Shown one piece after another: positions 6,039 to 57,297 of a stretch of 64,000 nt of DNA (position 1 is its first letter; every line of letters begins with the position of its first letter). Below the pieces are notes generated by a model that saw nothing but the letters and a program-made list of their open reading frames with translations, did no database searches and was not told where the DNA came from. A program made the position numbers and the translations under genes. Source of the stretch: Candidatus Enterousia sp. (GTDB taxonomy: Bacteria > Pseudomonadota > Alphaproteobacteria > Rs-D84); the NCBI GenBank assembly GCA_045617905.1, contig JAZLJO010000014.1, positions 72,743 through 136,742 on the forward strand, written 5' to 3'.

Positions 6039-6070
6039 TATATGATTTATATAACATAGCATAACTATAA

Positions 6071-6099
6071 AAAACGCCCCAAAAGGGGGCGTTTTTTAT
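6071..6099. terminator. bidirectional intrinsic terminator (aaaaACGCCCCaaaaGGGGGCGTttttt)
   Basis: GC-rich hairpin with A-run and T-run flanks between the convergent 2724-6038 (+) and parC (-). Confidence 0.6.
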
Positions 6100-13099: not shown

Positions 13100-14092
13100 T
13101 TACATTCTCCTTTTCAAAGCCAATTTACTTGCGCGTACAGCCAATTTCAATGCAAAATCACGTAATAAAACCTCAGCCGGCATACCGGTTTGACGTAACT
13201 GTTTTTCCAATTCATTCAAACGAAATAAAACCCCGGCAATTTCCGATTCTGGCCAAATTTTTCTGGCCCGATCAAATTTATCCGCAATTTTCCAAAACGT
13301 CGCCTGTGGCAACTGTCCCGTTACCACGGCGGTCATCAATTTTTTGAAATGTGCGTCTAATTTTCGAACCAATAAATTTGGTTCTGTATTGTCATATAAC
13401 AAACGATCCAATGCCGTCATTGTCTGTGTAATATACCCCGCCGTTAATGAATATAAAAAATCATCAGTATCCGCAGCCCCAGTATCGGGCAAACATTTCT
13501 CAACATCATCCAATTCAACAATTTTTTTATCATCAACATATAATGCAATCTTTGCCAAAAAACTACGCGTAATCCCACGATCACCACCTAAATGGTTTTT
13601 CATATATATCATTGCATCTGGTGTAATCTGCACAATACCAGCAGCGGCAGATAATTCACCACGAATCAGTTGTTCCAATTTTTCTGCATTATCTGTATAA
13701 CACGGCAATATTGCGATATCACTGCCCCCTTCGAACAAAGATCGCAAACCACCACCCGCGCGTAAATCACCGGCGGTAACAATAACTGTTGCACACAAAC
13801 CAGGATGTGTCACCAAATCGGCAATCTGTTTAGCATCACCATCTGCCGCCCCAGAAATAACAACCATTTTCTGTCCACCAAACATTGATGGACTGCAACT
13901 TTCGGCAAATACAGCCTCTTGTTTTTCCCGTAATTCATCTGCATCCAATGCAAACAAATTATCTTTTTCTATATTTAATTTTTCAATCGCTTTATCGCAA
14001 TATTCATCAACTTGACCGGCATCAGGTCCATAAATTAACAATGCTTTGATTTTGGTTATTCCACCATTAAAATCCGTATCTTTCCATTTCAT
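13100..14092 (-). CDS. holA: DNA polymerase III subunit delta
   Basis: 330 aa with a LLIYGPD...  N-terminus. Conserved lptE–holA synteny. Confidence 0.6.
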   Translation of the reverse strand: MKWKDTDFNGGITKIKALLIYGPDAGQVDEYCDKAIEKLNIEKDNLFALDADELREKQEAVFAESCSPSMFGGQKMVVISGAADGDAKQIADLVTHPGLCATVIVTAGDLRAGGGLRSLFEGGSDIAILPCYTDNAEKLEQLIRGELSAAAGIVQITPDAMIYMKNHLGGDRGITRSFLAKIALYVDDKKIVELDDVEKCLPDTGAADTDDFLYSLTAGYITQTMTALDRLLYDNTEPNLLVRKLDAHFKKLMTAVVTGQLPQATFWKIADKFDRARKIWPESEIAGVLFRLNELEKQLRQTGMPAEVLLRDFALKLAVRASKLALKRRM

Positions 14093-14565
14093 TACTTGTT
14101 ATCCCCAGAATGTTTTACAGTTTCTGCAATAACACGGGTACCTATTTTATCCGCCAATACCAAAATTGTATTTTGCACTGCACTGTTATACGACGCATTG
14201 GCGGCCACCAAATAACGAACGAATGTATATGATTCGGACGCCGTTTCAACCCCACGTGCAATTTCCACATCATCACGATATAACGTATATTCTGCACGCA
14301 AAATTATTTCTTGCCATGTGGCGTTTCCCGTTTGTTCCAATGCTTTGTATTTTGTTTTAGGTTCACTTAATTTAATCATCAACACATATTCTGCCCCAGG
14401 ATTTTTTTGCCCCCCAAACTGAGCGTTTAACGCATTTCGCAATTCTATACCATTGATACCACTGATTGGTTTAACATAAATATCCGAACTGTTTCCAGTA
14501 AACATCGGCTTAAAACCACATGAACATAAAATCAAAACACATAACACAATCAATAATTTTTTCAT
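14092..14565 (-). CDS. lptE: LPS-assembly lipoprotein LptE
   Basis: Lipobox LILCSC. ~157 aa, immediately upstream of holA (conserved leuS-lptE-holA context). Confidence 0.6.
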   Translation of the reverse strand: MKKLLIVLCVLILCSCGFKPMFTGNSSDIYVKPISGINGIELRNALNAQFGGQKNPGAEYVLMIKLSEPKTKYKALEQTGNATWQEIILRAEYTLYRDDVEIARGVETASESYTFVRYLVAANASYNSAVQNTILVLADKIGTRVIAETVKHSGDNK

Positions 14566-14641
14566 ATTTAATCCGTCTATCTGTTTTCCTGTTGCATTTT
14601 TTTCATATATTACCTAGACTTTTAATAAATCGCAAGGGGGA

Positions 14642-15874
14642 ATGATGAATATTTTTGTTATGGTATTGGTCGCAATCTTTGTCGCTGGTTATTATGTCTT
14701 GACTGCACCTAATACCCGTACCCCTGAACAAGAAACGATGTATGCAATTGAACGTTCGGATCTACGTTCTGTTGCTGAATGTACAACCGCAGTACACAAT
14801 GCACAACTGCATGGCGAAACATTTGATGATATATGTGTTCAACAAAATAATATCATCAGTCAAAACGTATGTTTAAACAAATCATCAAAAATCATCCCAT
14901 GCGATTCAACAAAAACACCTGTATTAAATTATGTCATAACAACGACAAATGTTTTACCTGAATCAAAATTTAATGCAATGACAGAAATCTTGGAACAATA
15001 TTATTCAAACATAGGAACATTTGGAATATTAACGAATAAAAATATAGTTTCCGGTGGCATGCAAAGCAAATATTCTGTTCCAAACACAATCGTATCAAAT
15101 TTAAAATTACAAGATGGGCAATTAATATACATAACCCAATATGCAGTCCCCATAAAAAAAACAGTTTCCATCACCCCAACACAACAAAGCATAGGTTGTC
15201 CAAACGGAACGGTAAAAACGTATCGTTTTGGTCGTTGGCAATGCATTGCAACCAATGATAAAACCACATGTGGTGGTGATATGGTTTGGAATTCCGAACT
15301 GTTAGAATGTATGCCTGATGAAACCAGAAAACCATTATGTGCAAACAATCAAACCGCCGTTATGATTGATGATATATGGAATTGCATGGACCCAATACCA
15401 GAAAACGCATGTTCGGATAATCAGGTTTTACAAATGAATTATGACACAAACACATGGGAATGTATTTCATCCCCAACAGAAACAAACATATCTACAAAAT
15501 GTTCAAATATAAAATCGAACGATTATTATATAAAAATTGGCACAACAACACGCATTCCAATTTCATCGTGCACAGATTGTGAAAAACATATACTGGATAC
15601 AAATACGTGCAAATCGTATTGTATCCCAGATCCAACAAAAATTGGCACCCCTGGATGTTACGCGGACGCGAAAAAATGCACCGGCCAACGACATGGTTTT
15701 TATTTTGGCTTTCCAAACGCAGAATACATTACACACATACCGGATATTGAAAAAAAATATGTCCCCATAGATGCACATCATTCACAAAACAGAAAATTTA
15801 ACTGTCTAGATTGTGGCGATGGCACCATTGATACAGAAAAATCATTTCCACCATATATTGCAATATGTAAATAA
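14642..15874 (+). CDS. hypothetical secreted/anchored cysteine-rich protein
   Basis: AAGGGGGA RBS. N-terminal TM/signal. ~30 Cys spread through 410 aa. No known domain. Confidence 0.45.
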   Translation: MMNIFVMVLVAIFVAGYYVLTAPNTRTPEQETMYAIERSDLRSVAECTTAVHNAQLHGETFDDICVQQNNIISQNVCLNKSSKIIPCDSTKTPVLNYVITTTNVLPESKFNAMTEILEQYYSNIGTFGILTNKNIVSGGMQSKYSVPNTIVSNLKLQDGQLIYITQYAVPIKKTVSITPTQQSIGCPNGTVKTYRFGRWQCIATNDKTTCGGDMVWNSELLECMPDETRKPLCANNQTAVMIDDIWNCMDPIPENACSDNQVLQMNYDTNTWECISSPTETNISTKCSNIKSNDYYIKIGTTTRIPISSCTDCEKHILDTNTCKSYCIPDPTKIGTPGCYADAKKCTGQRHGFYFGFPNAEYITHIPDIEKKYVPIDAHHSQNRKFNCLDCGDGTIDTEKSFPPYIAICK

Positions 15875-16089
15875 CAAATTACTTCAGTTTATGGACTTTG
15901 TTGTTTTCCATAATTGTTGTCCGAATAATTAACCCAATAAAGCGTGGGACGAACCGAAATCCGTCCCAATAAACAATTAAAGGGTAATTATCCGCAGTCC
16001 GAGCCGTAACTCGAATCAACGAATCTCTATTTTACACGTCTGGCGTATACACTGTATACTAAATCACGTGTATTTATTTCTGGTATTAT

Positions 16090-16362
16090 CTACTTTTTTT
16101 TATAATTCATCAAAGTGCCCAAGATATATCCCAATTTTTCCCGTTTCAATACCTGCAACATTTTTTGTTCGATACCAGATATTTGCTCTCTAACCATATC
16201 TAAATCTTTTTCCAGTAATGGAATATTTGGACGGTCACTGGGATCATCTGGATCCATACAGCACAATTCATTTTCTAAATTATGTTGTTCTTTGAAACAA
16301 CTTTCTAATTGTTTTTTCAATTGTTCCTTTTCAAAATTCAAATTCATTTTTGGGTTAACCAT
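16090..16362 (-). CDS. hypothetical coiled-coil protein (operon partner of the upstream glycosyltransferase-like gene)
   Basis: 90-aa ORF 8 nt downstream of the 16371-17261 gene on the same strand. Confidence 0.35.
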   Translation of the reverse strand: MVNPKMNLNFEKEQLKKQLESCFKEQHNLENELCCMDPDDPSDRPNIPLLEKDLDMVREQISGIEQKMLQVLKREKLGYILGTLMNYKKK

Positions 16363-16370
16363 ATTTTTTC

Positions 16371-17261
16371 CTATTTTTTAATCGGTTGAAATTTTAATAA
16401 AATTTCGAATATCTCTTTTATTTTAGACATTTCTTGCAATTGTAATCTACAGTTTTCATAATTTGCTTTTTCTACTTTATTATTATATTCTTTTACGATT
16501 TCTTCTAGTGCAGATATCAATTTAGATACCATATCCTTATTTACCGCCAACGCTTGCCGTATTTTTGGGTTGTTAACTAAATCCCCCAATATACAAACCG
16601 GTGCTTTTTTCAAATAAATATTTAAATATTTTTTCTCATCTTCTTTAGAATTATACTTATTCGATAAAAAATTGTTTGACTGTTCAATTTTCTTTATCAT
16701 CTTTTCTCGTCTTATCAAATTTTTTTCAAAATCACAAATATTTTTTTCTTTTATAATTTGTAAAGCATCGCGTAAACACTTCAACAAATTATAATTATCT
16801 ATCAAATCAATTTCTCCACTAATTTTAAATCCATCCGTCCACGACGGCCCATTCATCCACCATGGTTTAATAGCCTTAGCAACTGCTTTGAACACAGCTT
16901 TAGCCTCATCACTGTATCGTTCATCATATTTATTATAAAAATCACAAAAACGCCCTAAATCGTTTTTTCCCATAAACAAAAATGGTGATTCTGTTCCAAA
17001 AACTTCTTCATTATATGACATCTGTTCCCACAACGTATTACATATAACATCACCGTCTATATATCCGACATCTCCCCAATGAGGCCAACCATTTGTGTTA
17101 AACCCTCTTCTATGAAACGCCTTATATGCCTCATAAACCGTCCCAAAACATAATTTATCTGTAAAATAACATTGTTGGGCAGAATAACCAATTTTTTCAT
17201 TTAAAAAATTCATATACTTTTCTGTATACTGTGGTATTTTAGTAATCTGGCGACGATACAT
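16371..17261 (-). CDS. putative DXD-motif glycosyltransferase (GT-A, Gly_transf_sug-like) with Lys-rich coiled-coil C-terminus; effector candidate
   Basis: Start at MYRRQ, preceded by AAAGGAG. WPHWGDVGYIDGDVI resembles the GG(I/V)YxDxD sugar-binding DXD region. Confidence 0.4.
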   Translation of the reverse strand: MYRRQITKIPQYTEKYMNFLNEKIGYSAQQCYFTDKLCFGTVYEAYKAFHRRGFNTNGWPHWGDVGYIDGDVICNTLWEQMSYNEEVFGTESPFLFMGKNDLGRFCDFYNKYDERYSDEAKAVFKAVAKAIKPWWMNGPSWTDGFKISGEIDLIDNYNLLKCLRDALQIIKEKNICDFEKNLIRREKMIKKIEQSNNFLSNKYNSKEDEKKYLNIYLKKAPVCILGDLVNNPKIRQALAVNKDMVSKLISALEEIVKEYNNKVEKANYENCRLQLQEMSKIKEIFEILLKFQPIKK

Positions 17262-17345
17262 AAGAAACTCCTTTAGACAAAAATAATTTATTCCACAGCA
17301 ATTGTCAATTTTTTTATTCGGCAATAAATTATATTTCAAAAAAAT

Positions 17346-17374
17346 CATCCGCCCAAAGGCGGACAATTTTTTAA
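17346..17374. terminator. intrinsic terminator (tCCGCCcaaagGGCGGa + T-run)
   Basis: Hairpin with T-run downstream of the acyl-CoA synthetase gene on the minus strand. Confidence 0.5.
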
Positions 17375-17403
17375 ATATCAACCAATGATACAAATATACA
17401 CTT

Positions 17404-18990
17404 TTATTCTGTCGGTAATGTAAATTCACCACGTTCTAACATTTCTTTGACCATAAAATGTTTAATTTTACGGGCCGATGTTTGTGGTAATTCATTTTCC
17501 GTTATTGCAAAATGCTTTACCCATTTATATGGGGCAATTTTAAGGTTCGACGCCTTCAACAAGACGGCAACACGTGATGTTGTAACCCCAGGGGTAACCT
17601 GAAATACTGCAAATGGAACAACTTTACCATTTATCACGTATTCAAAAACCGCGGCGGCCAATATTTCATCATTTTGCATATACAGATCTTCTAATTCATC
17701 TGGATAAACATTTTTGCCACTGTCTAAAACAATAACCTGTTTTTGACGTCCCTTTACAATTAAACGTTTTTTATTGTCTAACTTTCCCAAATCACCCGTT
17801 TTAAACCAACCGTCTTCGAATGCGGCTGCATTGGCGTTATCATTATCAATATACCCCGGCATAACCATGTTACCGCGCATCATGATTTCACCAACGCCGT
17901 CTTTATCTGGATTATTAATTTTTATTTCATTTCCCAACAATGGTCCCGCATACCACATGCGTCCATCATCACGACGAAATGCAAAATTAAAATTGGCGGG
18001 GCCGGTTGTTTCCGTCAAACCATAACAATCCCCAACAGCAAAATCCAACCGTTCAAAGAAACGACGAATCGTTGGTTTTAATGTTGCACCGGCAGACACC
18101 AAGACCTTGGTATTACCACCAAATAATTCATGTATAGGACGGGTTACCTTATTAACAATCCAACCCAAACCAATTGCACGTAAAATGCCACGCATTGATA
18201 CAACAACACGCATCAATGTATAAACATGTTTTTCTTTGGCAGCATCAATAATTTTTTTATAAAACGTTTCCCAAATACGTGGAACCGCAGGAATAACCTG
18301 TGGATGATATTTTTGAAAATCGTTCATAAATTCACGTGGATTTAAAACAGGCTGCAATAACAATTGTCCCTGCAAAACAATTGGTACAATTATATTAATC
18401 ACAACACCATATATGTGATACAATGGCAAAAATCCATAAAAAATATACCCTGGACGAATTACTGGACTATAAAACAACGCCCCCTCAGCCAACGATAAAA
18501 CATTATTATGTGTCAAACCAACAACTTTTGGATTACCGGTTGAACCAGATGTAAATGACAACATTGCAACATCATCACGCGATACATCTGCGGCCACAAA
18601 ATCATTTGGATTTGTTTCATCAATGCTTTCAATATCAAACATTTCTGCACCACCATCAACAAAATGCGATTTTTGCGCCAATGCCAATTTACAATTTGTC
18701 CGTGTCATCATATTAACATGTTCTGCCGGTGATAAACCGGTATCCAACATCAATACTTTTGCCCCCTGGGATAAAATTGCAAAATATGACCGAATAAAAT
18801 CCGGTGTATTCCCAGACAATAATGCGACCGTATCACCCTTTTTAATACCAAATTTTTGTGCCAACAAAACCGCACGTTGTTTTACTTTGTTTAACAAATC
18901 TGCATACGTTTCATTCTGTCTGACAAAGAAAATACGATCTTTGTTCTGCACGCAGGCGTTATGCAACATTTCATATATGTTTTTTACCAT
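17404..18990 (-). CDS. AMP-dependent synthetase/ligase (long-chain acyl-CoA / acyl-ACP synthetase family)
   Basis: AMP-binding signature SFTSGSTGNPKVVGLTHNN. 528 aa. AAGGA RBS. Confidence 0.75.
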   Translation of the reverse strand: MVKNIYEMLHNACVQNKDRIFFVRQNETYADLLNKVKQRAVLLAQKFGIKKGDTVALLSGNTPDFIRSYFAILSQGAKVLMLDTGLSPAEHVNMMTRTNCKLALAQKSHFVDGGAEMFDIESIDETNPNDFVAADVSRDDVAMLSFTSGSTGNPKVVGLTHNNVLSLAEGALFYSPVIRPGYIFYGFLPLYHIYGVVINIIVPIVLQGQLLLQPVLNPREFMNDFQKYHPQVIPAVPRIWETFYKKIIDAAKEKHVYTLMRVVVSMRGILRAIGLGWIVNKVTRPIHELFGGNTKVLVSAGATLKPTIRRFFERLDFAVGDCYGLTETTGPANFNFAFRRDDGRMWYAGPLLGNEIKINNPDKDGVGEIMMRGNMVMPGYIDNDNANAAAFEDGWFKTGDLGKLDNKKRLIVKGRQKQVIVLDSGKNVYPDELEDLYMQNDEILAAAVFEYVINGKVVPFAVFQVTPGVTTSRVAVLLKASNLKIAPYKWVKHFAITENELPQTSARKIKHFMVKEMLERGEFTLPTE

Positions 18991-19248: not shown

Positions 19249-19426
19249 ACACATAAACCGTATCTATATATGAATTGGGCAGAAAATCCGCATTTTCAAA
19301 TGTAAAGTAAAAAAAAGAAAAAAATTTACTTTTTCTATGTTGCAGCAAATTCAAAAAAACTATATGTTGTTACTATAAATTCAAAACAACCACTACATAT
19401 AGTATTTTTAAAGAATCGGGGCAACA

Positions 19427-21475
19427 ATGAGTAACGACACACAAAACGAATTAAAAATGCAGTTAATTCCTACATTTAAATCATCTTTGGCATCTGTCCA
19501 AAAACGCAATGGTGAAACGGTTGCATTTGATGGACATAAGATATTTAACGCTATCAAAGGGGCTGTTGCTTCAACCAAAGAAATATCAGACGATCAAATC
19601 GTAACAATAACACAAACCGTTTTGGATAAACTGGATGCTAAATTCACAAATCAGGTTCCGAGTGTTGAATCGATTCAAGACATTGTTATCGAAACATTAA
19701 TGGATACCCATGCATATAAAACTGCCCAAGCATATATCATATACCGTCAAAAACACACAGAAATTCGTAATTCATACATAGACGCCGTAGATGTTATTGA
19801 CAGTTACGTTGGTGGTTCAAATTGGCGCATCAAAGAAAATGCAAATATCGGTTATTCAATTGGCGGATTAATTTTACGAACCAGTGAACGCGTTACAGCC
19901 GAATATTGGTTAAATCTGTTTCCACACGAAATTGCCGAAGCACACAAAAATGCGGCAATCCATATACACGATTTAGGTTGGTTAACCGGTTATTGTGCAG
20001 GTTGGTCATTACGTGAATTATTATACGAAGGTTTTAACGGTGTTCCAGGCTATTTGCAATGTGAACCGGCAAAGCACATGGCAACCGCAATTTCACACAT
20101 GGTTAATTTCTTGGGAACATTGCAAAATGAATTTGCGGGTGCCCAGGCATTTTCATCGGTTGATACATATTTGGCACCATATGTTAGATTGGATAAATTA
20201 TCATATCCCGATGTAAAAAACGCAATGCAAACATTAATTTTTAATTGCGCCGTTCCATGTCGTTGGGGGACCCAAACGCCATTTATAAACTTTACATTTG
20301 ATTGGACCTGTCCCAAAGATTTACGTGCACAACATCCTTTTATTGGTAAACAACAGGTTGAATTTACATATGGTGATTTGCAACCAGAAATGGACATGAT
20401 TAACAAAGCATTTTTAGAAGTCATGACCGAAGGTGATGCACAGGGCCGTCCATTTACATTTCCAATTCCAACATACAATATTACAGATGATTTTCCATGG
20501 AATCATCCAAATGTAAAACCATTGTTTGAATTGGCGGCAAAATATGGTATTCCAAATTTCCAAAATTTCTTGAATTCAGATTTGAATCCAACAGATGTCC
20601 GTTCAATGTGTTGCCGTCTGCGTTTAGATGTTCGTGAATTATTAAAACGCGGTGGCGGTTTATTTGGTTCCGCAGAAAAAACGGGATCAATCGGTGTTGT
20701 AACAATTAACTTGTCCCGCCTGGGGTATTTACACAAAGGCGATCGCGATGGTCTGTTCCGCGAATTACAACAATTATTGAATTACGGCCGTCAAGCATTG
20801 GAAATCAAACGCAAGGTAATATCTAAAAATATGGAACGTGGTTTATACCCATTCACACGCCGTTATTTGGGGAATTGGAACCATCATTTTTCAACAATTG
20901 GTGTAAACGGGGCAAACGAAATGGTTCGCAATTTTACAAATGATCGTGAAAATATTGCCACCCCAATGGGTAAACAGTTGGTATTGGATGTAATGGATTT
21001 TATTCGTGAAAACCTGGCAAATTTCCAAGAAGAAACTGGCAATTTGTATAATTTAGAGGCAACCCCAGCCGAAGGTTGTTCATACCGTTTTGCAAAAACA
21101 GATACTAAAAATTATACAGATATTATTACCGCTGGAACCAAAGATGCGCCATATTACACCAATTCAACACAATTACCTGTAAACTATACAGATGATCCAT
21201 TTGTTGCACTGGAACACCAAGAAGAATTGCAACGTAAATACACGGGTGGAACAATGTTACATTTGTATATGGGCGAACCTGTATCATCTGGGGACGCAGC
21301 ACAAAAGATTGTTCGGACGATTTTTGAAAACTACAAAATACCATATATGACATTAACACCAACATTTTCAATATGTCCAAAACATGGATATTTGCCAGGG
21401 CGCCATGAATTCTGTCCAAAATGTGATGCAGAAATTGCGGCAAACCAAAATCATGAACATTCTGAAAACAATTAA
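19427..21475 (+). CDS. nrdD: anaerobic ribonucleoside-triphosphate reductase (class III) large catalytic polypeptide; lacks the glycyl-radical motif
   Basis: N-terminal ATP-cone and class III RNR core. Ends just after the Zn-ribbon CPKHGY...CPKCD, with no R(V/T)CGY motif. Confidence 0.8.
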   Translation: MSNDTQNELKMQLIPTFKSSLASVQKRNGETVAFDGHKIFNAIKGAVASTKEISDDQIVTITQTVLDKLDAKFTNQVPSVESIQDIVIETLMDTHAYKTAQAYIIYRQKHTEIRNSYIDAVDVIDSYVGGSNWRIKENANIGYSIGGLILRTSERVTAEYWLNLFPHEIAEAHKNAAIHIHDLGWLTGYCAGWSLRELLYEGFNGVPGYLQCEPAKHMATAISHMVNFLGTLQNEFAGAQAFSSVDTYLAPYVRLDKLSYPDVKNAMQTLIFNCAVPCRWGTQTPFINFTFDWTCPKDLRAQHPFIGKQQVEFTYGDLQPEMDMINKAFLEVMTEGDAQGRPFTFPIPTYNITDDFPWNHPNVKPLFELAAKYGIPNFQNFLNSDLNPTDVRSMCCRLRLDVRELLKRGGGLFGSAEKTGSIGVVTINLSRLGYLHKGDRDGLFRELQQLLNYGRQALEIKRKVISKNMERGLYPFTRRYLGNWNHHFSTIGVNGANEMVRNFTNDRENIATPMGKQLVLDVMDFIRENLANFQEETGNLYNLEATPAEGCSYRFAKTDTKNYTDIITAGTKDAPYYTNSTQLPVNYTDDPFVALEHQEELQRKYTGGTMLHLYMGEPVSSGDAAQKIVRTIFENYKIPYMTLTPTFSICPKHGYLPGRHEFCPKCDAEIAANQNHEHSENN

Positions 21476-21507
21476 ACAACGCATAACAAAGAAAAAAGGA
21501 GAGTATT

Positions 21508-21693
21508 ATGCAATCAGGTTGCACACAAAGAACACCATGTGAAATTTTTTCCCGTTCAATGGGTTTTATCCGTCCGGTATCAAATTTCAATATCGGTAAA
21601 TATTCTGAATTCTGCGAAAGAAAAACATTTACAGAAAACAACAGTTTAACGACGGGTGCACGTCACAATGATTTAATGAAAATGGCTGCATAA
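21508..21693 (+). CDS. glycyl-radical C-terminal domain of NrdD, encoded as a separate 61-aa polypeptide
   Basis: RSMGFIRPVSNFNIGKYSEFCERK aligns to the E. coli NrdD C-terminus RRVCGYLGSPDARPFNAGKQEEVKRR (radical Gly plus N-GK-E-R). Own RBS AAAGGAGAG 7 nt upstream. Fusion with nrdD needs two or more mutations. Confidence 0.6.
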   Translation: MQSGCTQRTPCEIFSRSMGFIRPVSNFNIGKYSEFCERKTFTENNSLTTGARHNDLMKMAA

Positions 21694-21697
21694 TAAA

Positions 21698-22396
21698 ATG
21701 TCTGATATTCAAATTGGGGGGGTGGTCTCGTTTACAACAATTGATTATCCTGGGAATCTGGCCGCGGTATTGTTTTTGGTTGGATGTCCATTACGATGTG
21801 CATATTGTTCGAACCCCCATTTGTTGTCTTTTCGTTCGGGTGATTATGATCCGATTAAAGTTTTTGAATGGATTCGTTCCCGCGTTGGAAAATTAGAGGC
21901 CATTGTATTTTCTGGGGGCGAAGCATTAATGCAATCTGATGCATTGATACAATATATGCAACAGGTTCGTCAATTGGGTTTTAAAATCGGATTACATACC
22001 AATGGTTTTTATCCTGAAAATTTAACGCGTGCAGCCCCATTTATTGATTGGATTGGCTTAGATTACAAGGCCACACGTGAAAAATATCCCGATTTAACGG
22101 GGCAAAATATTGCATATAACCGTATGATTGATTCACTTAACATTTGGCAATCCACGGGCAAAGATTATGAAATTCGCGTAACATGCGACCCACGTTTTAT
22201 ATCACCAAATGATTTATTAACAATTGCGAACGATTGTGCAACACGTGGTGTAAAAAATTTTGCGATTCAAAAATATATTCCACATTTTGAAACAGATACC
22301 GATAATACAACATCGGCAGATCGCGAACAATTTTTCATCCCGGACATTAAAAATACAATTAATACAATGTTTGAAAATGTAATTTGGCGTGAATAA
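21698..22396 (+). CDS. nrdG: anaerobic ribonucleotide reductase-activating protein (radical SAM)
   Basis: CPLRCAYCSNP radical-SAM cluster motif, 232 aa, immediately downstream of the nrdD pieces. Confidence 0.8.
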   Translation: MSDIQIGGVVSFTTIDYPGNLAAVLFLVGCPLRCAYCSNPHLLSFRSGDYDPIKVFEWIRSRVGKLEAIVFSGGEALMQSDALIQYMQQVRQLGFKIGLHTNGFYPENLTRAAPFIDWIGLDYKATREKYPDLTGQNIAYNRMIDSLNIWQSTGKDYEIRVTCDPRFISPNDLLTIANDCATRGVKNFAIQKYIPHFETDTDNTTSADREQFFIPDIKNTINTMFENVIWRE

Positions 22397-22452: not shown

Positions 22453-23124
22453 TTATGCGGCCCGTTGTTGATTTTGAAAAATCTGCCGTACCTGTTCTTT
22501 TCTTTGTTCAATCGCCATTATCATTATTTTCAATTTTTCCGTTCCATGTTTCATTTTCTGTTGGGTTATTTGTTCAGCCCCCGCACCGGCTGGATTTTGG
22601 ACGGGCAAATCTTTTGGATTAGTATTCGGGTTTCCCATCGCTGATGGTAATTTGGGACCATGTCGCAACGCCTGTTGACTGCGTTGTGGTATATTCGGGG
22701 CACTTTTTTCTATTTCCATCATATTGCCTTTGTATTTTTCCATAACCTGTTTTAACGTATCGACCGCTTTTTGTATCTTGCGAATATTTTCTGCACGTGC
22801 TGCGTTGTCCAGTTCTTGAACAGATTCACGTTTATTATCCAACATTGATTGTTTTGCCTGTTCTTTGGATTTATCTTCATGAAATTTACGTAAATATTGT
22901 GCTGCAACACCATTATTGGATTTTTTACTGTCAATAAAACCTTTAACCTGTTGGGTTGCCATATACATCGATTTTCCATAACTGTGTCCATGTGCCCCAT
23001 TCATGGCGACCAATGCTTTGTTCAATTCAGCATATGCCCGTTCGATAATTTTTTTATCTTCTATCGATATTTGTATACCGCTTTGGTTGACTGCATCTGC
23101 TATATTCTGCTGATTTACTGCCAT
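22453..23124 (-). CDS. hypothetical Lys/Gln-rich coiled-coil protein
   Basis: 223-aa ORF with no recognised domain. Confidence 0.35.
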   Translation of the reverse strand: MAVNQQNIADAVNQSGIQISIEDKKIIERAYAELNKALVAMNGAHGHSYGKSMYMATQQVKGFIDSKKSNNGVAAQYLRKFHEDKSKEQAKQSMLDNKRESVQELDNAARAENIRKIQKAVDTLKQVMEKYKGNMMEIEKSAPNIPQRSQQALRHGPKLPSAMGNPNTNPKDLPVQNPAGAGAEQITQQKMKHGTEKLKIMIMAIEQRKEQVRQIFQNQQRAA

Positions 23125-23278
23125 TTCTGCCCCCTTTGGTTATGGTGACGCTCACACCCACCAATTTATATATAATGCGCGCATAAGGTATTTCAACCTA
23201 ATTGTCAAGAAAATTGTTTTTTTGACAATAATCCTATTCTATGTCAGGCTGTATTTCGGACATGTCATAAAACATGCT

Positions 23279-23329
23279 GTTGCCAATAATGGGCGGCATG
23301 GATATGCCCCGCGGTCTTGCCAATAATGG
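23279..23329. promoter_or_regulatory. two direct copies of TTGCCAATAATGGG spaced 37 bp, upstream of the outer-membrane protein gene
   Basis: Exact 14-bp direct repeat at 23279-23292 and 23316-23329, 35-85 bp upstream of the ATG at 23366. Confidence 0.35.
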
Positions 23330-23365
23330 GGGCCGTCGAATTTCATCAAGACCAAAAGGAGTATA

Positions 23366-24517
23366 ATGATGAAAAAATCTGTAAAAATGGCTGTTGCCGC
23401 ATCGATGTTGGCAACACCTGCAATGGCGAATGCCGGTGCATTGAAAAACATGGAAAATCCGTTATATATGCCGGATGCCCATGGGGTATATTCGAAACTG
23501 ACAAACGGCGTTATGTTAAAAGTTGCCGACAGTTCCGAAGCACACAAGGATAAACACCACGATGGTGCAACAGAATTTCCGATTATCCGTATTCAGGAAG
23601 AATTGGGATACGGTATAACCGATCGTTGGATGGCGCATTTTTCTGCACAATACACACATGATGACGATATTTCCCGTACCGGTTTGTCTGGTGGTCGTTT
23701 AGGGACAACATATCGTTTGTTCACGCCAGAACACAATAACGGTTGGACAGTTGATGTCTATGGCGATTTACACCTGGGTGGATTAGGTGAAATGCGTGGC
23801 CAGTATAATATTGAAGGAAAAACATTGTCGACCACAGAACAAACAAAGATTGTAACGGAAGCAACCACGGCGGGAATGGAGCCAACAACAGCATTGGCAG
23901 GTTATTCTCTGAAAAATGCATCTGGTGTAATTGATTATGATAACTATTCAAATGGTATGTGGGGTTATCATGTTGGAACAAAGTTTGGTCGTGTATGGAA
24001 TGACCGCTTTACAACATCTGCATTCGTAGAAGTTTTGCGTACATTCGGTGACGACAACAGTCGTATCCGTTTGGTTGGTTCAAATACAGAGGTTTTGCCA
24101 AGTACTTCAACAGCATTGATTTTGGCAAAATTGGCCGCGCCATCTGAAGTTACTGCAAAATTCAAATCAACAACTGAAATCAATGCTGGTTTGAATACGT
24201 TTTATCAGTGGTCATCTAAATGGTCAACGGGAACATGGTTCCGTTATAACCAACATGCGTCCCAGGGCGTAGATAAAATCACAACCAATGTTTCAAGTGC
24301 TTTGGAACCAGTTAAAAAGGCATTGGAAGAAAAACTGTCTGATATGCAGGACGGATTTGACGAATACATCATTGGTTTGTCCGTTGCACACCAGTTTACA
24401 GACCATGCCCAGGTTGCACTGTATGGTGAATACACATTTGACACTGCTGAAAAACGTTCCCAGAACGGTACAGATGTCAAAGCAGAAATGGGTGTTCGTG
24501 TAAACGTAAAGTTTTAA
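23366..24517 (+). CDS. outer-membrane beta-barrel protein (porin/surface-antigen-like), C-terminal Phe
   Basis: Signal peptide MMKKSVKMAVAASMLATPAMA. Alternating amphipathic strands. Terminal ...RVNVKF. Confidence 0.55.
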   Translation: MMKKSVKMAVAASMLATPAMANAGALKNMENPLYMPDAHGVYSKLTNGVMLKVADSSEAHKDKHHDGATEFPIIRIQEELGYGITDRWMAHFSAQYTHDDDISRTGLSGGRLGTTYRLFTPEHNNGWTVDVYGDLHLGGLGEMRGQYNIEGKTLSTTEQTKIVTEATTAGMEPTTALAGYSLKNASGVIDYDNYSNGMWGYHVGTKFGRVWNDRFTTSAFVEVLRTFGDDNSRIRLVGSNTEVLPSTSTALILAKLAAPSEVTAKFKSTTEINAGLNTFYQWSSKWSTGTWFRYNQHASQGVDKITTNVSSALEPVKKALEEKLSDMQDGFDEYIIGLSVAHQFTDHAQVALYGEYTFDTAEKRSQNGTDVKAEMGVRVNVKF

Positions 24518-24553
24518 AAAACGAACATAAAATACTATAAACTATATTGGACA

Positions 24554-24582
24554 AAACCCGCCCTTTTGGGCGGTTTTTTTAT
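24554..24582 (+). terminator. intrinsic terminator (aaaaCCCGCCCttttGGGCGGttttttt)
   Basis: GC hairpin plus T-run after the OMP gene. Confidence 0.6.
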
Positions 24583-24652
24583 ACGTATATGCATATAAAA
24601 TAACTTTTTTAACGGGGCATTTTATGATATAATACCAATAACAAAAATCGGA

Positions 24653-25783
24653 TTGGAAATGAGAAAATTCAGTATTTACGCCACATTTGCGGGCATTTGT
24701 GCGTTTTTATCACACGCATCCCATGCAGCGTACCCAATATATCAGGGGGGGATTCCAAATGGTCAAATGATTGCTATGCCACAACAGCAAATGATGGTAC
24801 AACAACCGGTAATGTATGTTCCCCAACTGTCCAATCGTGCAATTTCAACCGCGGCGGCAATGAATTCACGCCATGGTAATGCCGCCAGTGCAAATCGTAT
24901 AACGGGTGCATTACCGCGGGTTGGTTCAAACGCAACAAATGCCGGCCGCCAATATTACCAGGCATCTGATTATGATCGTTTAGCCGACAGTGGTTTATAC
25001 ATTGGCCTGTCCGCGGCATACGCCATCAGTGTTATGGGCGATATGTCTGCAGATTATCAAAACGAACAAAATGCATTCTTTGTTCCCGGTGCCTTTAAAC
25101 CGGCCAGTTTTAATTACGATTCCGTTATTCCATTACAAATATCCGTTGGTGCCGCAATTAATAATGATATGCGTATTGATTTTTCATATTTGCGTTACAC
25201 CGGTCTGGGATACAACAACACCGCCGAAACGTCCGATGGGGGTGGCGGTTATGTTCAAACCAAGGTTGATGGTGGGGCAATCACCGCAAACACCACAATG
25301 TTGAACATATATTATAACATTGATTCATACACTGGATATTTGGCGGGTGGGTCATTACGTCCATATGTTGGTGCGGGTATTGGTGTATCATTGAATACCA
25401 TTGCTGATTACGTTGTTTATGATAAATCTTTTTATTCTGAAATGGATCCCGCCTATGCAGGTGCCGGTGATTTAACCGCAATTTCTGATGTTACGGCATA
25501 TCATAATGGGGGGACAACAGAACAATTCGCATTTATGTTGGAAGGTGGGCTGACCACAGAATTAAACGGCGGAATAAAAATGGATTTTTATGTCAGATAC
25601 ACCAACCTTGGGCGTGTAAAAACATCGGGTAGTAATGTTGTTTCACAGGTGGAATGGTTGTCCGATGGTGCCGGCAGTGAATACGAAGCCCCATACGACA
25701 GCGTATTCCATTATACCAATTGGTACGAAAGCGGTCGTCTAAGCACGGTTGATTTGGGCGTCCGTGCCAGATTGCAGTATTAA
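24653..25783 (+). CDS. outer-membrane beta-barrel protein, C-terminal aromatic residue (paralog-like neighbour)
   Basis: Signal peptide, Gly/Tyr/Asn-rich beta-strand pattern, terminal ...RARLQY. Confidence 0.5.
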   Translation: MEMRKFSIYATFAGICAFLSHASHAAYPIYQGGIPNGQMIAMPQQQMMVQQPVMYVPQLSNRAISTAAAMNSRHGNAASANRITGALPRVGSNATNAGRQYYQASDYDRLADSGLYIGLSAAYAISVMGDMSADYQNEQNAFFVPGAFKPASFNYDSVIPLQISVGAAINNDMRIDFSYLRYTGLGYNNTAETSDGGGGYVQTKVDGGAITANTTMLNIYYNIDSYTGYLAGGSLRPYVGAGIGVSLNTIADYVVYDKSFYSEMDPAYAGAGDLTAISDVTAYHNGGTTEQFAFMLEGGLTTELNGGIKMDFYVRYTNLGRVKTSGSNVVSQVEWLSDGAGSEYEAPYDSVFHYTNWYESGRLSTVDLGVRARLQY

Positions 25784-25805
25784 AACAAAAAATAACGGAG
25801 AGAGA

Positions 25806-27506
25806 ATGCCCAACAAAACCGCAATTTGTTCAATATTAACCATTGTGGCCGGTGTAATGGTTACACAATATTCGGCGATTGCCGCCGTCCACGTCAGCAA
25901 TGCCGCCCGCAGCCGCGCTGATGCGTATAATCAGGTCAATCAAATGATTGCCGCATCACAATCACAACAAATAACGGATGAAAATTCTTTGCCTGTTCGT
26001 GTTGCAGACGCAGATTTGGCCCGCAAATTAATCCAAGGCGACACCAGTATTCATGTAACATTTACCGATTTAAATAACTGCAAAGAAACATACCCGGCTG
26101 CAGAATTTGCATGGGACAAACCAAATGTTGGTCTGTCTTCAAACAAATCAGATCAATGCGTCGGTGTTGTAAGAATGTACGGTTATCAAATGGGCCCCGG
26201 TGGTTCAGATGCATTATTGGCCACCGCAAATTTACCAATCGATGGCAGCATAAAATGCAACATTTCAGAATTTCCAGAATCAGGTTACACCACATATGCA
26301 GGCCAGGTAACCTTCCCCGCCGATAACGAACCAACAATGGATGATGTAAAACGTGCCATGAATCGGGAATCAAAACAAAACGCCGGATTAAAAATTGCTG
26401 CAATGGCGTTAACCGGTGGTGTTATTGGAAATATGGTTGGAAACAACCCTGAAAACCCTGGGAATATTTTTGGATCAAACAAAGAAAAAATCCACAGCAC
26501 CGCAATTGGTGCAACGTCGGGCGCCGCATTGGCCGCCGCCAGTGCATATTCCGGCAAAGTTGCGGGGGACGCAATTTTAAACGCGGGTATTGCCGCCGCA
26601 GGTGGTGGAATTATTGCGAATATTAGTGCATCCACAAACCCTGACAGTAATAAATTACGTATTGAAAAATGTACAATCGACGGCAAAGACACAACCTGTC
26701 TGTGGGGTTATGCACTAGAAATCGAATCAGGAAACGATGCGTTCAATATGTTTTACGATTTTAATTCACATGTATCATATAAATGCAACAATGAATTAAA
26801 AGAATGCGAACAAATTCAATTACATGACACTGAGCTTCTTCAACCAATATCCAACAAATCTGGAACAGTATCTAAAATAGAAAAAATAAATATAGATGAT
26901 TTAAAAGCAAATCTCGGTCGGAATGAAAGATATTATATACATACAGATATCAATGACAGCAAATGCAGCGGTGGTATCAAAATATGTTTAACCCAAATAC
27001 AGCCTTCAAATGTAGATAATGACAAACTGCCGCTTATTTTAAAAGTAAAAGGTAATATTATTAAAAAGAAAATACCTGCAATGATTGAATATGAAGATGG
27101 TAATACGTTTTTTGGAAAAAACAAAGCCAGTTGGTCAGAATATAAGGATAAACATATAAACGGTACAGTTTATGGACGTCAGGCTGGTGGCATCCAAATT
27201 CCACTATTAGGAAACTATAACATTGACAATTTTGAACCTATGACCATTGGTGCCGATGATGATCATGGTAATATTATTGATTTATCCAACAAGGCCCGAT
27301 TGGGTGATACTGTCAAAGGTGCCGCCGCCGGTGCCGGTTTGGGTGCATTGTCGGGTATTCAGGGGGCCAATACAGAAATTTCTGAACGTTATGTTTCTGC
27401 GGTTGCAGAATACAACGGATCATTACAAAAAATATATTGCAAATCGGGCGAGCGATATTTGGGTAAATATAACGATATTGTTGAAATTCCAAACATACAA
27501 CAATAA
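25806..27506 (+). CDS. hypothetical secreted/membrane protein with Gly/Ala-rich segments
   Basis: GGAGAGA RBS before ATG 25806. N-terminal hydrophobic segment. No known domain. Confidence 0.4.
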   Translation: MPNKTAICSILTIVAGVMVTQYSAIAAVHVSNAARSRADAYNQVNQMIAASQSQQITDENSLPVRVADADLARKLIQGDTSIHVTFTDLNNCKETYPAAEFAWDKPNVGLSSNKSDQCVGVVRMYGYQMGPGGSDALLATANLPIDGSIKCNISEFPESGYTTYAGQVTFPADNEPTMDDVKRAMNRESKQNAGLKIAAMALTGGVIGNMVGNNPENPGNIFGSNKEKIHSTAIGATSGAALAAASAYSGKVAGDAILNAGIAAAGGGIIANISASTNPDSNKLRIEKCTIDGKDTTCLWGYALEIESGNDAFNMFYDFNSHVSYKCNNELKECEQIQLHDTELLQPISNKSGTVSKIEKINIDDLKANLGRNERYYIHTDINDSKCSGGIKICLTQIQPSNVDNDKLPLILKVKGNIIKKKIPAMIEYEDGNTFFGKNKASWSEYKDKHINGTVYGRQAGGIQIPLLGNYNIDNFEPMTIGADDDHGNIIDLSNKARLGDTVKGAAAGAGLGALSGIQGANTEISERYVSAVAEYNGSLQKIYCKSGERYLGKYNDIVEIPNIQQ

Positions 27507-27520
27507 CACATATAAATTTA

Positions 27521-27550
27521 AAACGGGGGATACAAAAGTGTCCCCCCTAA
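27521..27550. terminator. hairpin GGGGGAtacaaaagtgTCCCCC (putative terminator)
   Basis: 6-bp G/C stem downstream of 25806-27506. The T-tract is only on the minus strand. Confidence 0.35.
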
Positions 27551-27786
27551 AGAGAACAAAATCAAACCGTGCAACAAAAATTTTGGTCAAATGTATAACC
27601 CAAAAAAACAGGCTTTCTACAATAATATCATGGAATTTGATATCACACCCCAACCACGATTATTTCATATAATATGTCATAACAGCATTAACATAAATCG
27701 TAAATAAATTATTGAACGCCATAACTATACAACTTTTTTACATCCAGCATTCGGAATGTATTGCATCGCCCCCAAAGGCATAACCT

Positions 27787-29466
27787 TTAATTTATATCGC
27801 TGCTATATACCCAATAAATTTGATTATTGTATTTAATTTTTAATACATTCTTACTATCATCAGAAATGAAATGTGGTTCTGTTGAAGCATTCGTATAAAA
27901 ACGTTTTCCATCGTATTCAACCACCAACGCATGTTCCGTATTTTTTATTTGCGACATATACATTGTCATATTGCCAACATGCAACAATCTGCCACATGAT
28001 AATTCTTGTGATGAACCGGCGGGACATACCAAACCAGTTAAACACGCATTTACCCCCGATGCATTATCTTCATCAACAGACATCTTACCACCCGGACACC
28101 AAGAATTTGCAGGACATATTGAACAATCTGTAGAATTGGCCGGTAAATAATATCCACGTTCACACAAAATAAAACATTCATTTATTTTGGTTGCGCCAAC
28201 ATCAGATGTCGTGCCATTTGGACATTTTGTACACGCCACACGATTGGTAAAATATTTTTCAAACCCTGTGATAAATTGATAATCACCTGCATTACATTGC
28301 GTATTCAATTTGGTTCCATAAAAAACATTTGTCATTTGATTCGAAGCGGTATAATTTATATCAACATTTGCAAATAATCTTTGCGGAACATCCCCCGTTA
28401 ATCCGGATGCACCGTAAAATGTTTCTTGAAACATTTTATTGGCGGGCCGTCCTGATATTCCAGCGAATAAATTTTCTGGTATTGGGCCGGTTAATTTTGA
28501 ACACCCTCTAAACGTGCCTTGAAACATACTGGTGGCTGGGTTGCCGGATATTCCCACAAACAAATATTCCGGTATTGGGCCGGTTAATTTTGAACATCCA
28601 TAGAATGTTTCCAAAAACATGCTGTTAATGGGACGGCCAGATATTCCCGCAAATAAATCTTCTGGGATTGTCCCAGTTAAATTAGCACAATCTTTAAACG
28701 TATACGCAAACATACTGTCGGCTGGGGGACCGGATATTCCGGCAAACAAATTTTTCGGTATTGTCCCCGTTAATCCCGTACAATTAAAAAACACGCTTCG
28801 AAACATACTTTCGACCGGTGTCCCAATTGCCCCAGCAAATAAATCGGGCGGGACATCCCCATAAACCCCTGAATTGTTAAACGTTTCCCAAAACATAAAC
28901 GGTTGCGGCTGGCCAGATATTGAACCGAATAAATTTGGTGGCAAGGTACTTTTTAAATTTGCAGCAAATTTAAATGTTCCAACAAACATATACGGCACCC
29001 ATTCACCACTTAATGAAGAAAATAAATTTTCTGGAATATTTCCCTGTAAATTTTCACACCGTTGAAACGTTCTGTAAAAACGCGGATTTCTTTGTTCACC
29101 AACCGTCAACGTTCCAAATATATCGGATAAAGAACCACTTATTTGTGCCAGATTTTTGTTTTCTTCAAAACTGATCGTTGCAACATTTATATTTGTATTA
29201 TATGCCGTTGCAGTACCAGATATTCCAATATCATATACCCCAGAATTTTTGTAAATATGTGAATATGTTGTAGATTTTACATCTGTTTGTGATATATTTT
29301 CAATATTACCATCACCCCAATCAATTATAAAATCACCTGTTGCAGCAATAGAAAACGAAAATTGAGACGTTCCATCAATCGTTTTTACCCAAAACGCAGA
29401 TTCCGCGAATACCGCATTTGCAGAAAAAATAATAAATATATAAAAAACTATTTTTCGCAGTTTCAT
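27787..29466 (-). CDS. secreted repeat protein: ~8 tandem 31-aa BspA/DUF285-like LRR repeats (C..LTG.IPE.LFAGISG.PA.SMF..TF.G) followed by a Cys-rich furin/EGF-like C-terminal region
   Basis: Signal peptide MKLRKIVFYIFIIFSANAVFA. Near-identical 93-nt repeats at ~28380-28960. CxxCPxG..C motifs near the C-terminus. Confidence 0.55.
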   Translation of the reverse strand: MKLRKIVFYIFIIFSANAVFAESAFWVKTIDGTSQFSFSIAATGDFIIDWGDGNIENISQTDVKSTTYSHIYKNSGVYDIGISGTATAYNTNINVATISFEENKNLAQISGSLSDIFGTLTVGEQRNPRFYRTFQRCENLQGNIPENLFSSLSGEWVPYMFVGTFKFAANLKSTLPPNLFGSISGQPQPFMFWETFNNSGVYGDVPPDLFAGAIGTPVESMFRSVFFNCTGLTGTIPKNLFAGISGPPADSMFAYTFKDCANLTGTIPEDLFAGISGRPINSMFLETFYGCSKLTGPIPEYLFVGISGNPATSMFQGTFRGCSKLTGPIPENLFAGISGRPANKMFQETFYGASGLTGDVPQRLFANVDINYTASNQMTNVFYGTKLNTQCNAGDYQFITGFEKYFTNRVACTKCPNGTTSDVGATKINECFILCERGYYLPANSTDCSICPANSWCPGGKMSVDEDNASGVNACLTGLVCPAGSSQELSCGRLLHVGNMTMYMSQIKNTEHALVVEYDGKRFYTNASTEPHFISDDSKNVLKIKYNNQIYWVYSSDIN

Positions 29467-29580
29467 CCCTTCCCATATATAAGGGGATAATATAAAAAAC
29501 ACAAAATAAAATCAATAAAACATTCCCCTGGAACAACAAAAAAAACAGCTCTGAACATTGTCCAAGATGTTAAATTTTAC

Positions 29581-55029: not shown

Positions 55030-55722
55030 GTGCAAAACCGCATAGAGCCACCAGTTTTACTGTCCAGATTACTGACCTTTGTATTGGCCGGTGCGTTGGT
55101 TGTTTTAATAACACTGATCGTAACCCTGTATAAAATGTTTCCCATTAATCGCCCCCAGGTGTTTTTTTTATCAGCCAGACCCCAAAATGATTTGCAGATA
55201 ATTTTAAACGAAATCCCACCGACAAATAAAAACATGGATTGGTATAAACGTTCATTTATACGTGAATACATACGGGTGCGAAATGAAATCGTCCCGAATA
55301 TAAGTGAAATGCATAATCGTTGGTCAAATAATGCAGGTGGCCTGGTTCGTGCATGGTCAACAACACCCGTATTCCAAGAATTTACCCAAACAAAATTATG
55401 GGCAGTCATGATGAACAACGTGTTGGGAAATTATTTTACATGTCGTGTTGAATTCAAAGATGGGGCTTTGACACCACGAACACACGATACATATTCGGTA
55501 GAATTCAAATATTTTTGCACAGATATTAGTGGACAGGAATACCAAAAAGATTATACAATCGTTATAAAATTAGAACAAGAAAACACAACCCCAATGAAAT
55601 GGTTCGAAATTTTAGACAACCCGTTGGGATTACGTGTATCAGAATATAAAATAGAATCCGATAACGGTGACCCATTAAATATTGGATACCAAATGATTGG
55701 TAATCAAAACGGAATCTATTAA
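55030..55722 (+). CDS. virB8: type IV secretion system protein VirB8/TrbF family
   Basis: GTG start with GAGG RBS. N-terminal TM helix. Periplasmic domain carries an NPxG motif (DNPLGLRVSEY). Confidence 0.55.
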   Translation: MQNRIEPPVLLSRLLTFVLAGALVVLITLIVTLYKMFPINRPQVFFLSARPQNDLQIILNEIPPTNKNMDWYKRSFIREYIRVRNEIVPNISEMHNRWSNNAGGLVRAWSTTPVFQEFTQTKLWAVMMNNVLGNYFTCRVEFKDGALTPRTHDTYSVEFKYFCTDISGQEYQKDYTIVIKLEQENTTPMKWFEILDNPLGLRVSEYKIESDNGDPLNIGYQMIGNQNGIY

Positions 55723-55750
55723 CAGACATACAAAGCTAAGGAATGTTGAC

Positions 55751-57271: not shown

Positions 57272-57297
57272 AAATTATATTGGTGGATTAGATTACA

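Follow-up and report, generated by a model that had tools for sequence, protein, structure and literature searches.

A split nrdD locus in Candidatus Enterousia

The stretch of DNA analyzed here (hereafter the window; 64,000 nucleotides, nt) comes from Candidatus Enterousia sp. (GTDB lineage Bacteria; Pseudomonadota; Alphaproteobacteria; Rs-D84; assembly GCA_045617905.1, contig JAZLJO010000014.1, positions 72,743 to 136,742 of the forward strand). It carries on its plus strand a class III ribonucleotide reductase (RNR) locus in which the catalytic chain and the predicted radical-bearing loop are encoded by two separate open reading frames (ORFs), followed by the activase gene. The first ORF, nrdD-large (19427..21475), encodes 682 amino acids (aa) comprising an ATP-cone, a catalytic barrel and a Zn ribbon, with no glycyl-radical loop. 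The ATP-cone covers residues 23-112 (19493..19762; PF03477, E-value 4.4e-22), the finger-loop cysteines C395-C396 lie in SMCCRL (20609..20614), a motif class that has been described (PMC9669993), and the predicted Zn ribbon, C650-x2-H653 ... C663-x2-C666, is found at 21374..21424. The last conserved stretch of the chain, ...TFSIC650PKH653GYLPGRHEFC663PKC666, is followed by a variable tail of 16 residues, DAEIAANQNHEHSENN (21425..21472), and the chain ends at N682 before a TAA stop at 21473-75. As read from the ORF, the 682-aa chain contains no R-x-x-G-[YF] motif.

The second ORF begins after an intergenic spacer of 32 nt (21476..21507), in which a Shine-Dalgarno site, AAGGAGAG, is located at 21496-21503 and places GGAG 6 nt before the ATG. 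Its product of 61 aa (21508..21693), MQSGCTQRTPCEIFSRSMGFIRPVSNFNIGKYSEFCERKTFTENNSLTTGARHNDLMKMAA, appears to consist of the glycyl-radical loop, the next helix and a C-terminal extension, and Gly19, at which the radical is predicted to reside (SRSMG19F), is encoded at 21562..21564. The third gene, nrdG (21698..22396), starts 4 nt past the stop of the small ORF and encodes a radical-SAM (S-adenosylmethionine) activase of 232 aa with a CxxxCxxC motif. An earlier note on this DNA, made from the sequence alone, had described an nrdD that ends past its Zn ribbon without a radical motif and a 61-aa ORF with its own ribosome-binding site 32 nt downstream, and both the coordinates and the sequence proved correct. 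The small ORF is in frame +2 with respect to nrdD and its own frame is shut upstream by a TAA at 21484-86; therefore no single indel can fuse the two ORFs, as the note had also maintained.

Profile comparisons were used to assign the three products. The large ORF matched the NCBIfam model NF006126 over positions 3-656 of 684 (1033.6 bits; cutoff 548), the Pfam family NRDD over positions 1-529 of 562 (570.8 bits) and TIGR02487 (465 bits; cutoff 326), and its ATP-cone match reached 78.9 bits. The small ORF matched positions 649-683 of NF006126 (E-value 9e-4) and positions 527-562 of NRDD (E-value 4.6e-5, 22.7 bits). The two ORFs are complementary, non-overlapping parts of one NrdD profile, which bears out the suggestion that the small ORF represents the radical-bearing C-terminus of NrdD. 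The further suggestion that the glycyl-radical domain had been detached was right for the Gly loop and the tail but not for the Zn ribbon, which stays on the large chain. Similarly, the profile check that the note had proposed succeeded with the C-terminal part of NRDD and failed with the pyruvate formate-lyase (PFL)-type Gly_radical domain: PF01228 gave no match in the small ORF at an E-value of 1 or below, and NRDD was the only relevant match. When the small ORF was used as a single sequence to search PDB sequences, no NrdD was found and the best matches were irrelevant (E-value 0.55 or worse), the ORF being too short for phmmer. On the other hand, 240 homologues of the small ORF were identified in a collection of 5.8 billion proteins, the best 120 of which were all 57-92 aa long and 77-100% identical; this homologue set is far beyond chance. 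The large chain found class III RNRs in the PDB by both sequence and fold, and nrdG matched TIGR02495 NrdG2 with 171.6 bits (cutoff 131.15).

Conservation of the split across Candidatus Enterousia

One genome per GTDB species was scanned with the large chain, which gave 527 confirmed relatives. The best 80 of them, 83-98% identical and nearly all labelled Candidatus Enterousia or uncultured Alphaproteobacteria from animal guts, were analyzed together with the window (81 loci in total). Enterousia belongs to the order Rs-D84, with reduced genomes of ~0.75-1.0 Mb (PMC12306168). The split layout, that is, the nrdD stop, a spacer, the small ORF and nrdG, was present in all 81 loci (79 detected by a regular expression, and L059 and L076 by eye). 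The nrdD stop was TAA or TAG, mostly TAA, and lay ~13-25 residues past CPKC, and the tail of the large chain differed in both length and sequence. The spacers measured 21-52 nt and contained a GGAGG-like site, and the small ORFs encoded 56-64 aa. A Shine-Dalgarno-like core was found no more than 16 nt from the small-ORF ATG in 75 of 76 loci; apart from this site and the ATG, the spacer sequence was unconserved.

The 54-aa core of the peptide could be aligned without gaps, R, S, M and G of the radical motif were invariant (Gly19 in 81/81 loci), and the same was true of G, R, H, L, K and the final A in the extension. Pairwise comparison by the Nei-Gojobori method (NG86) gave a ratio of nonsynonymous to synonymous substitution (dN/dS) of ~0.064 at a dS of ~1.5. 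The small ORF is under strong purifying selection. In all 76 loci in which nrdG was captured, nrdG started 2-7 nt past the small-ORF stop, which suggests that the radical peptide and the activase are translationally coupled.

Two alternative explanations can be addressed with these data. The window and most of its relatives are metagenome-assembled genomes, so that the split might reflect a sequencing or assembly error, or else a recent pseudogene. However, the independent assemblies, which derive from many hosts and studies, agree with each other in 81 of 81 cases, the dN/dS value is that of a constrained gene, and the same layout occurs in a complete genome of an isolate (see below). Both sequencing error and pseudogenization are effectively refuted, and the split is natural rather than a frameshift artefact, as had been proposed. 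Alternatively, recoding (stop-codon readthrough, frameshifting or ribosomal bypass) could join the two ORFs into one canonical NrdD. The relative frames of the ORFs were 0, 1 and 2 in 34, 22 and 23 loci, respectively (n=79); thus, the ORFs share a frame in 34 loci, some of which, for example L003, have no further in-frame stop in the spacer. In the other 45 loci, by contrast, the frames differ, in one direction or the other, most loci have TAA as the stop, neither the length nor the sequence of the spacer is conserved beyond the Shine-Dalgarno site and the ATG, and in the window the additional in-frame TAA blocks the frame of the small ORF. In other lineages, moreover, the ORFs overlap by 4-14 nt. 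On the basis of these sequence features, a general recoding mechanism appears very unlikely.

Split NrdDs in other lineages

To see how far this arrangement extends, we carried out an exhaustive HMMER search with the large chain against 1.84 billion representatives clustered at 50% identity and classified the closest 150 clusters. Among these closest representatives, 80 had no radical motif after the Zn ribbon, 64 had one and 7 were uninformative. Thus, chains without the glycyl-radical domain (GRD-less) made up about half (80/144) of the classifiable NrdD representatives. In a crude neighbor-joining tree of the 144 representatives, split forms were spread over several clades. The ~21 changes between split and unsplit states on this tree were rejected as a count of events, since distances were saturated, the stripping of inteins was approximate and there were no support values.

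We then inspected the DNA surrounding six GRD-less representatives or their peptides (L081, L082, L083, L084, L085 and L087). In L081, an intein-bearing nrdD is followed by a 67-aa ORF that overlaps the nrdD stop by 4 nt, and then by nrdG. The order in L083 is nrdR, nrdD, a 61-aa ORF and nrdG; in L084, nrdD and a 60-aa ORF; and in L085, nrdD and a 63-aa ORF in a phage-like context. L087 is the complete genome of the cultured Thermosulfurimonas marina (CP042909.1), in which nrdD encodes 1600 aa (1212-6014), a 56-aa ORF behind GAGGAGG overlaps it by 14 nt, and the ATG of nrdG comes directly after the stop of that ORF. Thus, the search for the same split in related genomes, which had been put forward as a check, showed that it is present in all examined Enterousia as well as in distant lineages and is widespread rather than peculiar to one genome.

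A search with the L084 peptide yielded 512 matches, of which the best 120 were all 48-86 aa long. The named sources of this second family of peptides include Thermodesulfobacterium sp. TA1, Thermosulfurimonas sp. F29, T. marina, Thermodesulfatator, Caldimicrobium, Ca. Hydrothermota and a contig labelled Pacearchaeota, and one of the large chains (P0151) is likewise named Caldimicrobium sp. The NrdD subfamily of the representatives (P0121-P0270) is very rich in inteins, and many of its members have lengths of 900-1879 aa and two to five separate matched stretches.

Viral sequences were also considered. When a stand-alone radical peptide was compared with 50,697 phage records by tblastn, only 3 matches were obtained, and the one inspected (Oceanotoga phage) was the C-terminus of an ordinary unsplit NrdD; these deposited phage genomes offered no evidence of a split NrdD. 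An orphan peptide gene of the NrdD type, encoding 71 aa (…CEIYSRVVGYFRPVSNWNIGK…), was observed at 1711-1926 of L088, among small unannotated ORFs. This contig (JGI 3300013103 Ga0164318_10030650, 5.2 kb, labelled Pacearchaeota) is viral-looking and carries neither nrdD nor nrdG.

Radical motif and chain ends

Gly19 of the small ORF aligns with the glycine of the RxxGY motif of unsplit NrdDs. Among the best 120 of the 240 Enterousia-type peptides, 97 contained RSMGF and 23 RSMGY, Met always preceding Gly (in the window, SRSMGF at 21553-21567). Unsplit relatives P0130, P0131, P0170 and P0223 likewise have Met before Gly (RVMGY). The motif of the second family is RVVGY or RIVGY, and the peptides of L081, L083, L084, L085 and L087 contain the classical TRVMGY, TRIVGY or SRVVGY. 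On the large chain, C395/C396, C650, C663 and C666 were invariant and G654 was conserved when split and unsplit relatives were aligned together, and the CPxHGY...CPxC pattern was also found in unsplit relatives. The sequence pattern suggests that C650, H653, C663 and C666 form a structural Zn ribbon. In P0130 and P0131, the closest unsplit relatives, CPxC and the radical loop are connected by a linker of 12 residues.

The ends of the chains showed additional features. The C-terminal extension of the peptide, G-x-R-H-x-[DE]-L-x-K-x-A-A (21634-21690), resembles the end of the unsplit P0143 (...ERKLLLKKAA). Because this unsplit protein ends alike, the extension is probably not an adaptation to the split. 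An extra pair of cysteines was noticed in the tail after the Zn ribbon in 10 of 72 GRD-less large chains (for example, P0121, P0128, P0129, P0135 and P0189), and a C-terminal pair in 22 of 120 peptides of the second family (for example, ...RRSCGC in the small ORF of L087). These pairs recall the C-terminal redox-shuttle cysteines of class I and class II RNRs; the tail in the window has no such pair.

Structural model of the joined chains

We modelled the two chains of the window with AlphaFold2 as one concatenated sequence, using an alignment of 88 rows. The joined model had a mean predicted local distance difference test (pLDDT) score of 90 and a predicted template modelling (pTM) score of 0.85, and residues 9-38 of the small chain had a pLDDT of 92-93. 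In this model, a beta-hairpin is formed around Gly19 (strands 694-699 and 702-705 in joined numbering) with a helix next to it. The artificial junction, composed of the tail of the large chain and the head of the small chain, was predicted with a pLDDT of 62-75, and the C-terminal extension of the peptide as a low-confidence helix (pLDDT 47-78). The same joined chains modelled without an alignment gave a pLDDT of 35. The top matches of a Foldseek comparison with the PDB were all class III RNRs and all single chains, including those of S. thermophilus (9d3x), P. copri (8p23), T. maritima (4coj) and phage T4 (1hk8). The peptide as modelled can thus occupy the place that the radical loop has in canonical enzymes.

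The P. copri enzyme provides a useful reference for where the chain is cut. Its glycyl radical domain consists of the Zn site, a loop that contains Gly711 and is buried, and a C-terminal tail across the surface, and this domain is highly mobile, being invisible to cryo-electron microscopy in the dATP-bound states (PMC11226230). In the window enzyme, the cut lies between the Zn site and the Gly loop of the domain so defined.

Comparison with known split and stand-alone systems

Canonical class III RNRs (E. coli, phage T4, T. maritima, P. copri and S. thermophilus) resemble the window enzyme in fold, profile family and ATP-cone. They also have in common with it the finger-loop cysteines, the Zn ribbon, an adjacent radical-SAM NrdG, NrdR boxes and the Gly-loop pattern SR-x-x-G-[YF]-x-RP...N-x-GK. 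They differ in that their radical glycine is located on the barrel chain, whereas in the window the barrel polypeptide has no radical motif and the glycine, preceded by Met, lies on a separate 61-aa product. To our knowledge, the radical glycine is part of the catalytic chain in every solved or characterized NrdD and in all characterized glycyl radical enzymes (GREs).

Small stand-alone glycyl-radical proteins are known in GrcA/YfiD and in Y06I of phage T4, which are activated by the cognate activase and act in trans (PMC8683613, PMC13450708). The earlier note had drawn an analogy with GrcA/YfiD, and this analogy holds to the extent that the peptide is a stand-alone radical-loop protein. However, GrcA/YfiD backs up a PFL that has a radical domain of its own and belongs to PF01228, whereas the window peptide is of the NrdD type, is half the size, is encoded in the operon and supplies the only radical loop of its core. 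One could still imagine that the small ORF is a spare part of this kind for a full-length NrdD encoded elsewhere, with the adjacent nrdD decaying or regulatory. Such a role would be in line with YfiD and Y06I, which serve PFL, and with the existence of orphan genes for stand-alone radical peptides (L088). Nevertheless, on the evidence of the nrd loci, we consider it very improbable: the adjacent partner lacks the loop in 81 of 81 genomes, this large chain retains catalytic and Zn residues that are invariant, reaches 1033 bits with the equivalog model and is 83-98% identical over 80 genomes of ~0.9 Mb, and the small ORF does not match PF01228. As its core lacks a radical loop, the peptide would be an obligate subunit rather than a spare part of the GrcA type.

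Separation of a C-terminal module has a precedent in the class II RNR of Pseudomonas aeruginosa, where NrdJa and NrdJb are products of adjacent genes and the detached module is needed for activity. NrdJa/NrdJb has been called a unique split RNR of a free-living organism (PMC4520616). The system differs from that of the window in being B12-dependent and in that the detached module is a Cys-rich Zn-finger/IscU-like reductive domain, not the radical site. Profiles place the window enzyme in class III, so that the likeness is architectural only.

Phage RNRs in pieces are another group in which genes of the catalytic subunit are broken into ORFs, such as nrdA-a/nrdA-b with mobE in Aeh1, which is functional, and the fragmented nrdD of phiAS4 (PMC3653736). 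In these phages the breaks lie elsewhere and are recent or tied to a homing endonuclease, intron or intein, and none has been reported to detach only the radical loop or to be conserved across a large cellular clade. In the window, by comparison, the 32-nt spacer holds a Shine-Dalgarno site only.

With such precedents and the abundance of inteins in this NrdD subfamily, a neutral origin has to be taken seriously. The split may equally be real but without any benefit from exchange, namely a gene in pieces that goes back to an insertion or deletion at a tolerant surface linker, for example through a lost intein, homing endonuclease or other mobile element, and whose two chains simply reassemble, and we give this possibility considerable weight while regarding it as the less probable outcome. 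It would fit the lengths of 900-1879 aa among the representatives (1600 aa in T. marina), the Aeh1 case, in which a mobile element split a gene that still functions (PMC3653736), and the position of the break, which in every case lies in the linker that joins Zn ribbon and Gly loop, with variable ends on both sides. Against it, no remnant of a mobile element was seen in the 21-52 nt spacers, and Rfam found nothing in that of the window. The split has also persisted over 81 species at a dS of ~1.5 and in several distant clades. Unsplit relatives demonstrate that a simple linker of 12 residues is viable, and the small ORF has remained tightly coupled to nrdG. None of these points proves an advantage.

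According to a review of June 2026, no GREs other than formate lyases are known to have small spare-part radical proteins (PMC13450708). A NrdD with its radical loop encoded by a separate gene was not described in the open-access RNR and GRE reviews, phylogenomic surveys and phage split-RNR survey that we searched, which agrees with the view of the earlier note that the arrangement is undescribed; an earlier mention elsewhere is possible. In databases, the peptides are mostly called 'hypothetical protein' and are sometimes automatically named 'anaerobic ribonucleoside-triphosphate reductase'.

A candidate two-polypeptide enzyme and its possible advantage

Taken together, sequence and model make it highly probable that the window encodes an obligate two-polypeptide class III RNR, in an operon of nrdD-large, the small ORF and nrdG preceded by NrdR boxes. 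The 682-aa chain would provide the ATP-cone, a ten-stranded barrel with the finger-loop cysteines, and the Zn ribbon, and the 61-aa chain, translated from its own Shine-Dalgarno site, would contribute only the Gly19 hairpin, the helix after it and the conserved C-terminal extension. Because nrdG starts 4 nt past the small-ORF stop, synthesis of the radical acceptor probably goes hand in hand with that of its activase. By the established chemistry of GREs, NrdG and S-adenosylmethionine would abstract the C-alpha hydrogen of Gly19. The hairpin would then be held non-covalently in the barrel beside C395/C396, like the attached loop of single-chain NrdDs, and the radical would pass from Gly to Cys to the substrate.

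Several observations weigh against this interpretation. First, the small-ORF score of 22.7 bits on NRDD is just under the gathering score of 26.2. Second, the motif of the Enterousia-type peptides is SMGF, with Met before Gly and usually Phe after it, whereas others have V/T/C-G-Y. Third, the placement of the peptide in the model owes a great deal to the unsplit homologues that were aligned and to the artificial covalent join; because these homologues guide the placement, the model does not prove non-covalent assembly. Finally, L082 (ENA ERZ15610527 NODE_400), a phage-like contig of 70 kb with a T4-type spanin, encodes a GRD-less NrdD (P0121, 955 aa) followed, after 55 nt and a hairpin, directly by nrdG (4001-7619). 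No radical peptide was detected within 4 kb of this nrdD or in the 10.9-kb locus by a regular expression or by a hidden Markov model built from the 240 small peptides. An adjacent peptide partner is therefore not universal among GRD-less NrdDs; in the case of L082, the peptide might come from another part of the contig or from the host.

If the two-polypeptide enzyme is real, the most obvious consequence concerns oxygen, which cleaves GREs at the radical glycine (PMC13450708). Since cleavage occurs at this residue and the loop would be detachable, damage would be confined to the cheap part, so that only a replaceable peptide of 7 kDa would be lost instead of the whole enzyme. This would be a likely advantage of the split, and the peptide could plausibly be exchanged once oxygen has damaged it. 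The activase should also have readier access to a free peptide than to a loop that must first leave the barrel; YfiD in its free form can be activated and can complement PFL in trans (PMC8683613). A further, tentative extension of the analogy, which we think is rather doubtful, is that the peptide acts as a diffusible and consumable radical cofactor that is charged by NrdG while free, docked reversibly, sacrificed to oxygen and replaced without resynthesis of the core, which is often laden with inteins, and that the module can be traded between viruses and hosts. Such trading would explain both the orphan peptide genes on virus-like contigs and the phage-like set of NrdD and NrdG without a nearby peptide gene.

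Should the obligate two-polypeptide reading be correct, a widespread class III RNR with a separate radical-loop protein of 6-7 kDa would change the subunit picture of the enzyme class. The peptide would be a natural minimal substrate of NrdG and would make the access of the activase to a barrel-buried glycine testable. The split suggests a strategy of repair by replacement against oxygen damage in gut and thermophilic anaerobes. In addition, a truncated nrdD can be mistaken for a pseudogene, which matters when deoxynucleotide synthesis is judged in reduced genomes.

Regulatory elements and genomic context

Upstream of nrdD, two 16-mers are present which resemble NrdR boxes (consensus ACACWATATATWGTGT). 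Box 1, AAACTATATGTTGTTA (19357..19372), agrees with this consensus at 12 of 16 positions and box 2, CCACTACATATAGTAT (19390..19405), 33 bp downstream, at 13 of 16. A similar pair was also found upstream of nrdD in the Enterousia relatives inspected, with up to 16 of 16 consensus positions (for example, L058 and L070). The spacing was 33 bp where a true pair was measured, most of the measurements being taken up by overlapping hits 2 nt apart. The assignment as NrdR boxes rests on the published consensus (PMC13584703). Scans for promoters and terminators gave no site in the spacer that separates nrdD from the small ORF, and their overall yield was lower than that from shuffled sequence. No clear Shine-Dalgarno site was seen for nrdG itself.

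An antisense ORF of 171 aa (21126-21641, minus strand) overlaps the 3' end of nrdD and the small ORF. In view of the strong coding conservation on the plus strand, this antisense ORF is most probably spurious. With regard to the genes around the nrd operon, 9 of 10 sizeable flanking ORFs (13100-17432 and 22453-29502) had no Pfam match at an E-value of 1e-5 or below, the only match among the ten being an AMP-binding enzyme (17404-18990); this points to a very divergent proteome in a lineage of reduced genomes. The window otherwise has the appearance of ordinary core chromosome, with gyrA/parC-like, rpoB, rpoC, yidC, aminoacyl-tRNA synthetase and type IV secretion genes. Among the latter, CagX/VirB9-like and TrbI/VirB10-like components adjoin core genes at 55030-59850.

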